A stretch of 64,000 nucleotides of DNA from an uncultured Lachnospiraceae bacterium (GCA_949948715.1 CATLGW010000010.1:950-64949); one strand, 5' to 3'; shown: positions 46,971 through 64,000, numbered from the stretch's first letter. Numbers and translations are program-made. The notes: a model not told the origin generated them from the sequence alone.

Positions 46971-47330
46971 CTATTTCTCCTTTCTGTCCTTAGTCTGCAG
47001 TTGATAGACCACGTCTGCAAATTCCCGCAACATACGCAAAGCCCCCTCCCGGGAGCGCTTATCCAATGAATTAATGATTTCCACTAAGGTATCTACCTCA
47101 AATCCATTGTTCTTTCCGCGAATGAAATAATCGGCTGATACGTTCATCTCAGTGCATATCTTGTATAAAGTTTTTGATGTGATCCCCTTTCTCCCGCCCT
47201 CCACGGCAGCCAAAAAGCTTTCCGACAAATTGCAGCGTTCGCTGAATTCGGCCTGTGTCATATGATAAGTTTCGCGAATTTCCCGGATTCGCAGTCCAAC
47301 CGTTAAATTGAAGTCCTTGTCAGGTTCCAC
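46971..47330 (-). CDS. XRE-family HTH transcriptional regulator
   Basis: GLRIREIRE..MTQAEFSE..LAAVEGG..VSADYF; divergent from the Tad operon. Confidence 0.9.
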   Translation of the reverse strand: MEPDKDFNLTVGLRIREIRETYHMTQAEFSERCNLSESFLAAVEGGRKGITSKTLYKICTEMNVSADYFIRGKNNGFEVDTLVEIINSLDKRSREGALRMLREFADVVYQLQTKDRKEK

Positions 47331-47389
47331 GCAATCACCAATCCTTTATATTTGAAATAAGTGTAGCATTGAATAGATGGGCTATTCAT

Positions 47390-47735
47390 ATTCTATGGAA
47401 TACATTATTATATTCAATAGAACTATAAGACAGACCTGAATATGGTTTCTAAATGAAAAAGTTTGTACGGGAATTTTTGGAAAAGCTTCCTGAAGGACAC
47501 TCAAGTTTTAATAAAAGCGCGGTAAAGCAGATGGCAAAGTGTCTTCCATTTGGGGTAGTCCCCGCAGGTGTCTCTGATTTGTGCCGTGAACGGCTATGTG
47601 AAGGCCAGGACGGGCATGAGGGCTGGATGTAATGACCATGCCGCAGTAAAGTTGTGCTACAGTAAGCAAACTAATTCTATAGAATATGATTATATATTCT
47701 ATAGAGTTGACAAAGCTAAAGAGATAGTATATAGT
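47390..47735. promoter_or_regulatory. Four ATTCTATAGAAT-type palindromic operators plus the SigA promoter of the Tad operon
   Basis: Copies at 47390, 47412, 47674 and 47696 (two pairs, each 22 bp apart). TTGACA(47707)-17 nt-TATAGT(47730). Confidence 0.75.
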
Positions 47736-47775
47736 TAAAGCAAACAACGGGAGTTTGCGGAGGGAACATGGAACT

Positions 47776-60890: not shown

Positions 60891-62932
60891 TTGCGGGATT
60901 ATATGAATTGAAGACGGAGATTGGCTCCGGCGGCGGAGGCATCGTCTATCTGGGGAGGCATATCAGACTGGATAAGGAGATTGTCTTAAAAGCGGATAAG
61001 CGGAGCCTGACGGTGGGGACGGATGTGCTGCGCCGGGAGGTGGATATGTTAAAGGGCCTGAGTCAGACTTATATTCCCCAGGTGTATGACTTTGTCCAGG
61101 AAAACGACACGGTGTATACGGTCATGGATTACATACGGGGCGAGAGCCTGAACCGGATACTGGACAGGAGCGGAAAGCAGCCGCAGGCGAGGGTCATCAG
61201 ATGGGCATGCCAGCTCCTGGAGGCCTTGGAATATCTTCATGGCAGACCGCCCCACGGTATCCTTCACGGCGATATCAAACCGGCCAACATTATGCTGCGG
61301 CCGGACGGCAGCATCTGCCTTATTGATTTTAACATTGCTTTGGCACTGGGGGAGAGCGGGGCAGTGAAGGTGGGGTTCAGCAGAGGCTATGCCTCTCCGG
61401 AGCATTATGGGATTGAATATGCCGATGCGGGGAGGCGGGTGCGGTATCTGGCGCAGGAGGGGACGGAGACGGTGACAATGGCCGCATCTTCCACCGGCGG
61501 CACGGGAAGAGGACGCGGAAGCGTGCTTTTGGATGTGCGTTCCGATATTTACAGTCTGGGGGCAACCCTCTACCATCTGATCAGCGGGCGAAAACCGGCC
61601 CAGGATGCGCTTTTGGTGGAGGGGCTTACCGGGCAGGACTGCAGTCCTGCGGTGGCGGACATTATCAGAAGGGCCATGTCTCCCTTGCCGAAGGATCGTT
61701 ATCAGACGGCGGCCCAGATGCGGGAAGCTCTTTTTAATCTGCACAGAACGGATCGGCGGGCACAGCGCCGCAGGAGGGGAATCTTTGTCTCGGCGGCGGT
61801 TTGGTCCTCTCTGTTTTTGGTCGGGGGGATCTGTTCCTTTGTGGGGCTGAAGCAGTTGGAGCAGCGGCAGACGGCGTTGGCGCTGGCGGAGTATTCCGCC
61901 AATGCCCTGGCCAGGGGGGAGGTGAACGACGCCATAAGCCTCGCGCTCCAGGCGGTGCCCCGGGGAGGGATCCTGGAAGCGCCGGTTACGGCGCAGGCGC
62001 AGAGGGCGCTGACGGACGCCCTGGGGGTGTACGACCTTTCGGACGGCTTTAAGGCACTGGACTCCATCGCGCTGCCTGGGCCTTGCCTGGATTTGTCCCT
62101 GTCGCCGGAGGGACGCAGGCTGGCGGCGGTGTACGGGTACGAGGCGGCGGTGTACGACCTGGAAACCGGGGACAGGCTGGTAGCGCTGCCGCTATGGGAG
62201 TCGGCCTGGTCCGACTGTCTGTTTACGGATGAGGACCATGTGGCTTTCGCGGGGAAGGATGGAGTCTCTCTCTATGATTTGGCAAGGAGGGAGGTCCTCT
62301 GGACGGGGGAGCCGGCCTCCCTGTTAGCCGTGTCCGGGGATGGCAGCGCCGTTGCGGCGGCGCGGGACGGGGAGGGTGTTGTCGTGTACCGGGCGTCGGA
62401 CGGCTCCAGGCTGACCGAGCGCTCCTTTGAGGGGCGGCGCATGGGAAAGACGGAAAACGACAGGTTTGCCGACCCGAAGGACTATGTTTTCGCGTTGAAC
62501 GAGGACGGAAGCCTCCTGGCCGCGAGCTTCGCGGACGGAACGCTGACCGTATTTGACCTGGAAGACCGTGAGAGCGATCTGTTAATTTATGAGGGATCGG
62601 ATTACCGTATTTTCGAGGGAGGCTTCTGCGGGGCTTATTTTGCCTACGCGGCATACGGGGAGAGCGGAAGCTTCGGGCTGGTGGATACAGAGCAGGGAGT
62701 CCTGAGGGGAGGGCTGGAAACGGAGGGGCGCTTTCTCTTGCAGGCGGATGAGAGAGGGATATTTCTGGGGCAGGGCGGCACGATCGTGGAGATCGACCCG
62801 GCCGCCCTGGAGGAGAGGGAGGCCGCCTATACCGGCGGCCCGGGCGTCACAAATTTTGCCGCGGGCGGGGGGTATGTGCTGGCGGCCACGGAGGACAACG
62901 GCGTTTCCTTCTATGACAGGGAGGGCGTTTGA
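60878..62932 (+). CDS. Hanks-type Ser/Thr kinase with TM and WD40-like beta-propeller (5' part of a frameshifted gene)
   Basis: GSGGGGIVY, VLK, HGDIKPAN, DFN, YASPE and DIYSLG; TM near aa 300-325; repeats LSPEGRRLA, VSGDGSAVA and LNEDGSLLA. Confidence 0.92.
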   Translation: MSQIIAGLYELKTEIGSGGGGIVYLGRHIRLDKEIVLKADKRSLTVGTDVLRREVDMLKGLSQTYIPQVYDFVQENDTVYTVMDYIRGESLNRILDRSGKQPQARVIRWACQLLEALEYLHGRPPHGILHGDIKPANIMLRPDGSICLIDFNIALALGESGAVKVGFSRGYASPEHYGIEYADAGRRVRYLAQEGTETVTMAASSTGGTGRGRGSVLLDVRSDIYSLGATLYHLISGRKPAQDALLVEGLTGQDCSPAVADIIRRAMSPLPKDRYQTAAQMREALFNLHRTDRRAQRRRRGIFVSAAVWSSLFLVGGICSFVGLKQLEQRQTALALAEYSANALARGEVNDAISLALQAVPRGGILEAPVTAQAQRALTDALGVYDLSDGFKALDSIALPGPCLDLSLSPEGRRLAAVYGYEAAVYDLETGDRLVALPLWESAWSDCLFTDEDHVAFAGKDGVSLYDLARREVLWTGEPASLLAVSGDGSAVAAARDGEGVVVYRASDGSRLTERSFEGRRMGKTENDRFADPKDYVFALNEDGSLLAASFADGTLTVFDLEDRESDLLIYEGSDYRIFEGGFCGAYFAYAAYGESGSFGLVDTEQGVLRGGLETEGRFLLQADERGIFLGQGGTIVEIDPAALEEREAAYTGGPGVTNFAAGGGYVLAATEDNGVSFYDREGV

Positions 62933-63714
62933 TGTCCGCGGAAAGCGGGAGCCAGAACGGGGATTTTCTGGCCCTGGGCGGGGAATATGCGGTGGTCGGG
63001 AACCGCACGGAGCCGGTATTGCGGATCCTGTGCCTGGAGGACCACCGGGATACGCAAACGGCCTCTTACGATCCCCGGGCTGTTCACTCGGAGGCGAGAG
63101 TCAGCGCCGACGGAGAGACGGTAATGCTGTTCGGCTACCGGGAATTTCAGGTCTATGACAGACAGGGGGCGCTATTATCCAGGGTAGACCTGCCCGACGC
63201 GGAAGCCGTTTACGACCAGCAGTTTGTAAGAGCAGGGGAGGAATCCTGGCTGGAGGTAATCTGGTATGACGGGACGAGGCGTTTTTATGACGCGGCGGAC
63301 GGAAATCTGATCGGGGAGGAACAGGGGGAAGCGCCTTCCGAGGATCTATATGAGGAATTTTCGGCGGGCCCTTTCCGGATTGCTTCCGGCCTGCATGACG
63401 CGCCGGTGGTATATGACAAAGCCTCCGGCAGAAAGCTGGCTGTATTGGAGGGGGAGGGGTATCTGACCTATGTGACGGAGGCGGGGGAGTACCTGGTCAC
63501 GGAGTATATCGACGCGTCGGGGGGACGGTACGGCCTCCTGTTAAATAGAAAGCTTGAGACGCTGGCTTATCTGCCGGGGCTGTGCGATGTGACGGAGGAG
63601 GGATTTGTCTTTGACAACGGCGTGGGAAGCCTGCGGTTAAGCCGCCTGTACTCCCTGGAGGAGCTGGTAGCGCTGGGGAGGGAACGGCTGGCGGGAGAGA
63701 GCGCCCGGGAATAG
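62929..63714 (+). pseudogene. Continuation of the kinase beta-propeller in another frame
   Basis: Same repeat type (VSADGETVM) and no signal peptide; joins the upstream frame if one base is inserted at about 62926. Confidence 0.6.
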
Positions 63715-63760
63715 GGTCTGTGTGGAGTGATACGGGAAGCAGGGAGAGGAGAAAGATAAG

Positions 63761-64000
63761 ATGAGAGGATGGAAGAGGATGAGACGGGGACTGGCGGCAC
63801 TATTGGCGGCGGTGTTGTGTATGCCGCTTTTGCCTGCGGAGGCAAGGGGGATGACGGAGCCTTGCGCGGCGGAGGTCGCTCTGCAGGAGGCGGAGGCTGG
63901 CGGCAGGACGGGAAGCGGGGAGGATACGGTTTCCGGGAATGACGCCGAGAGGGGAATGGGAGCGGGAGCCGGGGAGGCTACCGCGGAGGGGGATATCGCC
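63761..64000 (+). CDS. Secreted/surface protein, 3'-truncated by the window edge
   Basis: MRGWKRMRRGLAALLAAVLCMPLLPAEA signal peptide, a VSGND motif and an open frame to the window end; AGGAG RBS. Confidence 0.7.
   Translation, partial: MRGWKRMRRGLAALLAAVLCMPLLPAEARGMTEPCAAEVALQEAEAGGRTGSGEDTVSGNDAERGMGAGAGEATAEGDIA

Follow-up and report, generated by a model that had tools for sequence, protein, structure and literature searches.

In the type VI secretion system (T6SS), the membrane kinase PpkA, the PP2C phosphatase PppA and the FHA protein Fha1 are encoded together with the machine that they control. For T7SSe, a type VII secretion system (T7SS) variant, an accessory set has been described that comprises TseJ (a DUF6382-FHA protein), TseF (a PPM phosphatase), TseD (a membrane kinase), the single-pass proteins TseH and TseK and the giant Ig-like surface protein TseI, and control by threonine phosphorylation has been proposed (Garrett et al., 2024; PMC11217815). 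In the available part of that text, Tad genes are noted beside T7SSg and T7SSh only and DUF6382 is not called a pseudokinase. The Kil system of Myxococcus is a Tad-like machine with FHA proteins and a proposed role in contact signalling (PMC8460266, PMC12075869), and Myxococcus TadE/F/G-type pilins have been modelled as trimeric minor-pilin tips with variable C-terminal ends (PMC12075869). Tad pili of monoderm gut bacteria have hardly been studied. Here, we analyse a stretch of 64,000 nucleotides from an uncultured Lachnospiraceae bacterium (GCA_949948715.1, CATLGW010000010.1:950-64949), referred to as a whole as the window, in which an accessory Tad operon flanked by an XRE-family regulator is fused to a portable kinase-phosphatase-FHA cassette. 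We consider it moderately probable that this cassette is a contact-triggered switch for pilus assembly. The literature covered, with subscription papers and the supplements of PMC11217815 outside its scope, yielded no description of a kinase-controlled Tad pilus or of a pilin-borne polymorphic toxin; DUF6382 was found only in Garrett et al. (2024), DUF5702 in no paper, and Tad combined with FHA, a kinase and either Clostridia or Lachnospiraceae in Garrett et al. or nowhere.

A kinase-phosphatase-FHA cassette beside one Tad clade

Pfam matches and open reading frame (ORF) coordinates place every gene of the run from tadZ to a surface protein where the earlier note had read it: all genes lie tightly packed on the plus strand and are preceded by ribosome-binding sites, the distances between them ranging from -13 to +73 bases. 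Because it recurs in dozens of genomes, the arrangement is, on this comparison, far beyond chance. The layout of the operon is also present in Anaerocolumna xylanovorans DSM 12503 (L112). The cassette begins with a TseJ-like gene (58402..59934, +), in whose product Pfam and a structure model place a DUF6382 domain of pseudokinase fold, a low-complexity linker with two Thr motifs and an FHA domain. It continues with a TseF-like PP2C/PPM phosphatase (59941..60729, +; Pfam PP2C_2) whose four metal-binding Asp residues are intact, a small single-pass membrane protein of about 53 amino acids (60729..60890, +), recognized from its ORF and neighbourhood comparison as the companion of propeller-type kinases, and a membrane Hanks kinase with a large ectodomain (60878..63714, +; Pfam Pkinase 2e-34), one gene split by a frameshift. 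The kinase keeps the catalytic Lys, the alphaC Glu, the catalytic-loop Asp and the metal-binding Asp, and DFG reads DFN or DYN in this sub-type; judged by its residues, the kinase/PP2C pair would fit the signature of active enzymes. The last gene, for a DUF285/PARCEL-repeat surface protein, was recognized by its repeats from its start (63761..64000, +) and leaves the contig (C10).

In gene set and order the cassette resembles the T7SSe accessory set. Locus L041, in which EssC, YukD and two WXG100 genes are followed by close homologues of the FHA, PP2C and kinase genes, membrane proteins and a giant surface protein, is by its gene content a T7SSe as described (PMC11217815), and the cassette is, by the same comparison, the accessory set of that system. 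It differs in standing on a Tad machine and in having a propeller-type kinase with a DUF285/LysM partner and a small protein of a different sub-type; EssC, YukD and WXG100 are absent from the window locus and were not found in the genome that contains it (G000; 67% complete). As in the T6SS, the kinase, PP2C and FHA protein are encoded with their would-be target machine, but no T6SS genes are present, the analogy is one of logic and the FHA similarity is weak (TagH, 3e-6, below the cut-off). The Kil system is unlike the window locus in being diderm, with its FHA fused to an ATPase and killing carried out with a partner resembling a type III secretion system; no kinase or phosphatase appears in the 2021 main text, and the available passages on the tips do not describe them as toxin-immunity pairs. 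Ordinary Tad/Flp loci share with the window the full monoderm gene set, the DUF5702 pilin and DUF6382-FHA, whereas the window's clade has a separate CpaF lineage, a WG-repeat protein, a Flp without Glu at +5, the kinase cassette and variable tip payloads.

Tad is near-universal in the family, with CpaF matches in 145 of 150 genomes. Twenty-two ordinary loci of 50-60% identity were fetched, 20 of which could be read 15-18 kb downstream (L073, taken from the wrong side, and L069, which ends early, were left out). Neither kinase, PP2C nor WG gene occurs within that distance in any of the 20, whereas the WG-repeat protein is found in accessory loci. A profile of the second TadE pilin detects the accessory class in at least 31 of 400 family genomes, an undercount because G000 itself fell under the cut-off. 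The kinase is present in 21 of these 31 loci; three end at PP2C, three lack both genes and in four the contig ends early, which gives 21 of 27 readable loci. A quick maximum-likelihood tree of CpaF separates the 22 ordinary rows from a single clade of 26 rows (SH-aLRT 90; 94 and 98 at inner forks), which unites the kinase/PP2C-linked proteins with those of truncated or reduced related loci. The claim that kinase and PP2C are conserved next to tad is thus upheld by 48 of 53 Tad-linked PP2C loci with a kinase and a single CpaF clade, and the neighbourhood check that had been suggested for cpaF with kinase, PP2C and WG genes gives co-occurrence in the accessory clade and none in the 20 ordinary loci.

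The cassette also travels outside Tad operons. Its contexts were surveyed in the best 80 of at least 597 PP2C relatives, a sample that is biased because it was ranked by likeness to the window's PP2C. Fifty are Tad-linked, three have Tad joined to EssC/YukD/WXG100, eight lie behind a trypsin-membrane-FHA gene (seven with an integrase), six have other contexts and 13 loci are too short, so that Tad linkage applies to 53 of 67 classifiable loci. Since the cassette also stands beside T7SS ATPases and a protease-FHA gene, it is, by these neighbourhoods, not Tad-specific but portable. In the PP2C tree, the protease-linked group and the T7SSe copy nest among Tad-linked copies, with no donor resolved. 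In the protease-headed loci (L102, L106, L110, L111, L114, L115, L121 and L122), mostly beside a tyrosine integrase, the PP2C-kinase-membrane protein-giant surface protein cassette is headed by a trypsin-like protease that is extracellular and carries an FHA domain on the cytoplasmic side. In the hybrid loci L117, L140 and L145, Tad, FHA and PP2C genes run directly into EssC, YukD and WXG100, and the TadE pilins bear InlB/Listeria-Bacteroides repeats. A Tad-less cassette at L045-L046 (G030:C44) has as neighbours another set of FHA, kinase and PP2C genes, a DnaJ protein and a PAAR-like cluster with DUF4280. In the kinase-bearing Tad cluster of G050, the tadC position is taken by an SLH-anchored protein of 1470 aa that contains a lipase/acyltransferase-like domain (L049:10475-14887).

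Two kinase sub-types each keep their own partners. Among 24 loci with a recognized ectodomain, the short-kinase sub-type is accompanied by a tailed membrane protein in 22 and by a giant Ig-repeat protein in 22, and in none by the surface protein of the propeller type. The propeller-type kinase goes with the 53-aa membrane protein and never with the giant Ig protein; its surface proteins share a 190-residue unit containing He_PIG in six of seven loci with enough flank, and the same kinase/He_PIG surface pair recurs at the T7SS loci of G278 and G417. By these neighbourhoods, the propeller kinase travels with a surface-protein type of its own, an association new to this work. In the window's genome, contig C4 starts inside the same 78-base repeats as the surface gene and runs to LysM anchors and then to a second LysM surface protein; the surface gene likely continues from C10 onto C4, a join drawn from the shared repeats with no exact overlap. 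A polytopic membrane protein of about 500 amino acids follows the surface proteins on C4 (L191:6510-8015, G000:C4) and the cassette in a relative (L032:5908-8806). It has no Pfam or NCBIfam match and is possibly a glycosyltransferase for the surface proteins.

The candidate phosphothreonine switch

The model of the window's DUF6382 domain (pLDDT 95.3) has a compact kinase fold without catalytic motifs. The top Foldseek matches are TraF-N (E 2.6e-6, TM 0.53), YukC/EssB (2.0e-5, 0.47) and the kinase-homology domain of Rv3910 (2.7e-5, 0.65), and VIA-align superposes about 180 residues of the domain on many active kinases (Z 13.9, rmsd about 3); TM-scores and Z-scores are as high for active kinases as for EssB. 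The domain has no sequence match in the PDB. DUF6382 thus models as an EssB/YukC-like pseudokinase, an assignment made here for the first time. With the EssB/YukC, TraF and MviN pseudokinases it would share a compact kinase fold lacking catalytic motifs and an FHA partner (PMC9600267 and PMC12599244, in the parts available); it is unlike them in being soluble, with no membrane helix in the window protein, in being fused to its own FHA domain and in the lack of a sequence-level match to the solved structures.

Threonine repeats accompany the kinase. An ETTVL-type motif was counted in 69 of 95 FHA linkers from cassette loci versus 2 of 14 from ordinary loci (shuffled means 0.9 and 0.1) and in 57 of 67 membrane-protein tails (shuffled mean 2.6), the rows being related sequences. 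FHA domains prefer a hydrophobic residue at Thr+3, a preference that these repeats fit; the repeats are likely FHA docking sites, newly recognized here. The window linker carries variant motifs typical of the propeller sub-type, at Thr401 and Thr413 (numbering of the 522-aa ORF). In MviN, a phosphorylated tail recruits FhaA, according to the available text of PMC12599244.

A link from this protein to the pilus machine may run through TadZ. TadZ adjoins the FHA gene in the rearranged loci L039, L061, L092, L155, L160 and L297, and the two are likewise neighbours in T7SSf, as noted in the part of Garrett et al. that was available (PMC11217815). Structure prediction of a TadZ-DUF6382 complex scored 0.43 versus 0.01 for the best control, with 100% contact agreement between runs and a partner pLDDT of at least 82. 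The mark applied is reached by 116 of 157 solved pairs and 2 of 215 mismatched ones, and 18 of the solved pairs and both mismatches reach it with a score at or under 0.60. The binding of DUF6382 to TadZ, new to this work, is thus a weak prediction.

These elements may be assembled into a mechanism as follows. The cell-wall-anchored surface protein and the kinase ectodomain would sense contact, a role suggested because the two are strictly paired across genomes. The kinase would then phosphorylate the Thr repeats in the DUF6382-FHA linker and, in the other sub-type, those in the tail of the small membrane protein; the FHA domain would bind the phospho-sites and reposition or release the DUF6382 domain, which, as a weakly predicted TadZ binder, would place or activate the CpaF-TadB-TadC machine, and PP2C would reset the switch. 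If it resembles the Myxococcus tips, the tip of this pilus would be built from both TadE pilins together with the large TadG-like one. The earlier suggestion of a phosphorylation-gated Tad apparatus stands as far as the same packed run, the conservation beside tad, the retained catalytic residues and the enrichment of FHA docking motifs only where the kinase is present are concerned; as a change to it, the cassette is not specific to Tad. If the switch exists, one portable phospho-switch would control three outputs (pilus, type VII secretion and surface protease), and the cassette offers named residues and partners to work with: threonines of the linker, the FHA domain, the predicted contact between the pseudokinase and TadZ, and a strain-variable kinase allele.

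Several observations weigh against a phosphorylation-controlled pilus. Pili of the clade may work without the kinase, because 6 of the 27 readable accessory loci lack it, and ordinary Tad loci retain DUF6382-FHA with no local kinase; DUF6382-FHA is in fact not special to this operon, since a DUF6382 gene, either with an FHA domain or lacking one, closes most of the family's ordinary Tad loci. The cassette occurs without Tad too, with T7SS, with protease-FHA or standing alone, and the related genomes counted are non-independent samples. A motif scan detected no ETTVL-type motif in the window's TadZ, CpaF, TadB, TadC, WG protein or large pilin. The loops of phosphothreonine-binding FHA domains carry Arg, Ser, His and Asn; the window FHA keeps Arg, His and Asn and has Gly for the canonical Ser, and across the family the majority of FHA domains retain Ser and show Lys in place of the canonical Arg, so that phosphothreonine binding is not assured. 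The YukC pseudokinase binds the YukB FHA region in a manner that is, in the available text, apparently independent of phosphorylation (PMC9600267). The complex prediction belongs to a weak class that is more often wrong than right unless the complex is likely beforehand. A long filament is also not assured, because the Flp of the accessory clade is mostly without Glu at +5.

Some of the same observations would suit a self-contained envelope-sensing unit that inserted behind DUF6382-FHA genes and signals elsewhere, the Tad genes being neighbours under a shared promoter and not the target. In its favour, the cassette occurs beside EssC/YukD/WXG100 (L041), beside the trypsin-TM-FHA gene in eight loci, seven with an integrase, and alone (L045, L050, L118, L150 and L158), and the kinase is missing from 6 of the 27 readable accessory Tad loci. 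However, the cassette has long co-descended with one CpaF clade, rearranged loci (L039-L040, L112, L169 and L297) have its genes interspersed among the tad genes and clade-specific changes of Flp and the WG protein accompany it, and we regard this explanation as unlikely. A switch acting on the pilus remains the reading that we favour.

Pilins and tip payloads

The window encodes a small Flp major pilin (51860..52066, +; Pfam Flp1_like 0.0016, below the cut-off), a TadV-like A24 prepilin peptidase (52140..52820, +; Pfam PF01478 Peptidase_A24, above the cut-off), and three pilins that would form the tip. TadE-type minor pilins 1 (219 aa; 54204..54863, +) and 2 (182 aa; 57827..58375, +) are both of the short form without a C-terminal extension when aligned with relatives; neither has a Pfam match of its own, and both were identified through relatives that match TadE. 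Between them lies the large TadG-like pilin (982 aa; 54882..57830, +), with DUF5702 by Pfam, whose model (pLDDT 82.6) consists of a pilin helix and a beta-sheet split by a long helical insert and the DUF5702 domain; on this model it is likely the backbone of the tip complex. Foldseek gave it no match at E <= 0.001, and the Atlas returned DUF5702 clusters only. A toxin fold was considered for this protein and rejected: the top Foldseek row, an umbrella toxin particle (E 1.5e-3, TM 0.11), and the VIA rows (Z <= 11, helical bundles) reflect generic coiled-coil likeness.

The accessory loci yielded 200 distinct TadE-type pilins. Of these, 148 have the short form seen in the window, eight carry Ig or InlB-type repeats, two are unassigned and 39 end in a domain whose profile matches the CdiA-CT structures 4ZQU and 4G6U (E 0.0015). 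This domain mostly lacks a catalytic-looking Ser-x-Lys, which one hit in 56 retains. Four pilins combine a toxin-like end with a distinct gene immediately downstream. L197 encodes a TadE-TNT fusion (Pfam 6.8e-18) followed by 212- and 114-aa genes; L138 a pilin-ribonuclease (6.4e-7) followed by barstar (9.3e-10); L159, one of the 39, an intact-looking CdiA-CT-like domain followed by a 327-aa gene; and L315 (near-copy L316) a pilin whose C-terminal domain belongs to no Pfam family, followed by a 183-aa gene. The small genes behind the L197, L159 and L315 pilins have no family match, and the L159 domain alone gave no PDB match, only profile matches.

Polymorphic toxins exchange their C-termini behind a conserved N-terminus. 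L138 and L159 are identical at 339 of 370 N-terminal residues and at 18 of 113 C-terminal ones, and L138 keeps behind barstar a 327-aa gene that is 304/327 identical to that of L159. Likewise, P0119 and P0120 agree at 219 of 225 N-terminal and 22 of 113 C-terminal residues, and the C-terminal domain of L315 recurs on another pilin type (54/120 identical with P0120); this shared domain has no Pfam match, and an Atlas row of ADP-ribosyl cyclase domains (0.85) is a lead only. P0118, which has no genomic context, joins a pilin to a pretoxin HINT domain (Pfam PT-HINT) and an endonuclease. The pilin ends of relatives thus appear to bear the signature of polymorphic-toxin C-terminal exchange, rare, absent from the window and new to this work, and the small genes behind the toxin-like pilins are candidate antidote genes. 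As in CdiA, RHS and LXG toxins, a conserved N-terminal export domain in the relatives precedes exchanged C-termini, small downstream genes and, once, a pretoxin HINT; unlike in these, the carrier is a TadE pilin, and the window copy has no such fusion. No further pilin fusions were found by one protein search or a first metagenome scan, and another protein search returned mostly close relatives.

Across the clade, the tip payload would range from nothing, as in the window, through adhesin-like Ig/InlB repeats and degenerate CdiA-CT-like domains to, rarely, toxin-like ends with immunity-like genes. A bolder proposal sees in this Tad clade an antibacterial weapon of gut Clostridia, triggered by contact and gated by phosphorylation. 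Its tip pilins would be trafficking domains for polymorphic toxins of a new class, the switch of T7SSe would fire it, and the window would be an unarmed member; resting on the relatives, the proposal is in our view rather doubtful. If it is true, bacteria competing in the gut would have a new route of delivery in Tad tips. The antagonism entertained by the earlier note accordingly survives at the level of the clade, in relatives with toxin-like tip pilins, and not for the window copy, whose TadE pilins are both short and toxin-free: the locus contains no toxin or immunity genes, and the downstream DNA, where the note had advised looking for them, has none at the start of C4. The window copy most likely serves adhesion or contact.

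The pilins also bear on whether the machine builds a long pilus at all. The canonical Flp motif has Glu at +5. The window Flp, with an acidic +1 residue, lacks this Glu, a variant at the level of the clade: it is present in 5 of 58 accessory Flps versus all 15 cleanly parsed ordinary ones (three mis-cut Flps were left out), and the +1 residue is acidic in 40 of the 58. A short-piston secretion system, which would have the large TadG-like protein and the TadE payloads as its exported or displayed cargo and the lipoproteins behind the large pilin as chaperones or immunity proteins, would account for this loss, for the variable lipoproteins that some relatives encode there, including a tandem array in G176 with repeated pilin 3' ends, and for the toxin-like tips of relatives. 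The clade nevertheless retains a dedicated small Flp and prepilin peptidase, the large pilin has no detectable toxin fold and the window has no such lipoprotein, which makes a piston improbable. In the G176 array (L056 and L197, G176:C4:~297000-317000), about eight near-copies of a lipoprotein gene stand behind the large pilin gene, whose 3' end is repeated ahead of each of them, and a truncated second pilin copy is present as well; this may be an expanded cassette array, by analogy with immunity-gene arrays. In G062 (L200:5755-8500), the genes that follow the giant surface protein encode a barnase-like secreted ribonuclease, barstar and a number of small immunity-like proteins. In ordinary loci (L043, L078 and others), the TadE pilins end in paired Cys/His-rich motifs of zinc-binding appearance, possibly DNA-binding tips, and the near-universal Tad locus may serve DNA uptake.

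Kinase alleles, control region and surroundings

The membrane kinase is not complete in this assembly: a frameshift of one base, in a G run near 62918-62921, splits it. Single orthologues (954, 976, 1004 and 1040 aa) are matched from end to end by its two ORFs, 60878-62932 (684 aa) and 62929-63714 (261 aa), taken together, and the ORFs hence represent one gene. Contigs of runs X1 and X4 (study P1) carry the frameshifted allele, and contigs of runs X2 and X3 (study P2) have one extra G in the run and an open kinase frame in near-identical DNA; with both alleles in run contigs, an assembly error is unlikely as the cause, though depths are low (2-5) and X1 may be the sample from which the assembly came. 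The frameshift spares the kinase domain and membrane helix and removes about 260 ectodomain residues, the last quarter of the sequence, so that the ectodomain is truncated in this strain. The ectodomain is likely a beta-propeller, as previously read, although the Pfam match (PQQ_2 3.6e-5) is weak. That the operon is a decaying or switched-off remnant in this strain, as the frameshift (assembly, X1 and X4), the non-canonical FHA residue and partial losses in relatives (G066, G069 and G123) might suggest, is very improbable given that all other window genes are intact, that the kinase domain and membrane helix outlast the frameshift, and that X2 and X3 carry an intact allele in near-identical DNA, which fits a recent or reversible slip in the G run.

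The Tad machine opens with TadZ (47779..48834, +; Pfam PF21194 3e-46), an atypical receiver domain joined to a MinD-like domain, followed by the CpaF/TadA assembly ATPase (48845..50083, +; Pfam T2SSE 4e-61), placed in the accessory clade by the tree, and the platform proteins TadB (50093..50932, +) and TadC (50937..51797, +), both matching Pfam T2SSF. This TadA/CpaF-TadB-TadC core, up to 81% identical to relatives, is accompanied by the TadZ, Flp, prepilin peptidase and TadE/F/G-type minor pilins expected of a Tad system. A membrane-anchored WG-repeat protein (52868..54190, +; Pfam PF14903 8e-32), the marker of the accessory clade, lies between the peptidase and the first TadE pilin.

Upstream of tadZ, an XRE-family helix-turn-helix regulator is encoded divergently (46971..47330, -; Pfam HTH_19 1e-11), as at the loci of G014, G034, G062 and G191. 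A 12-base palindrome occurs in four intergenic copies arranged as two operator-like pairs, each with 22-base spacing. One pair (47390..47423, no strand assigned), found by motif matches, lies beside the XRE promoter region; the other (47674 and 47696) abuts the -35 box of a sigma-70-type promoter (pair and promoter 47674..47735, +), whose -35 element at 47707 and -10 element, ending at 47735 just before tadZ, give 11 of 12 consensus matches. The window contains six palindrome matches versus 1.85 expected, and three of the four genome-wide matches with at most one mismatch fall in the XRE-tadZ intergenic region. The layout would be that of an autoregulated XRE repressor, and the protein is likely a repressor of its own gene and of the operon. 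In L031, L033 and L051, the XRE proteins and short intergenic repeats upstream of tadZ differ from those of the window, and because of these differences the regulator has apparently been exchanged between loci.

The G+C content is 0.45-0.53 in the tad half, 0.58-0.63 in the kinase and surface genes and about 0.55 upstream. DNA of the locus was found in mouse gut metagenome runs, with no RNA data set among the runs listed, and the nearest named relatives are mostly Lachnospiraceae. Further upstream in the window (39708-46799) lie a gene resembling glycerol-phosphate dehydrogenase, an operon for a peptide ABC transporter and an AIM24 gene, housekeeping functions unlinked to the Tad operon.

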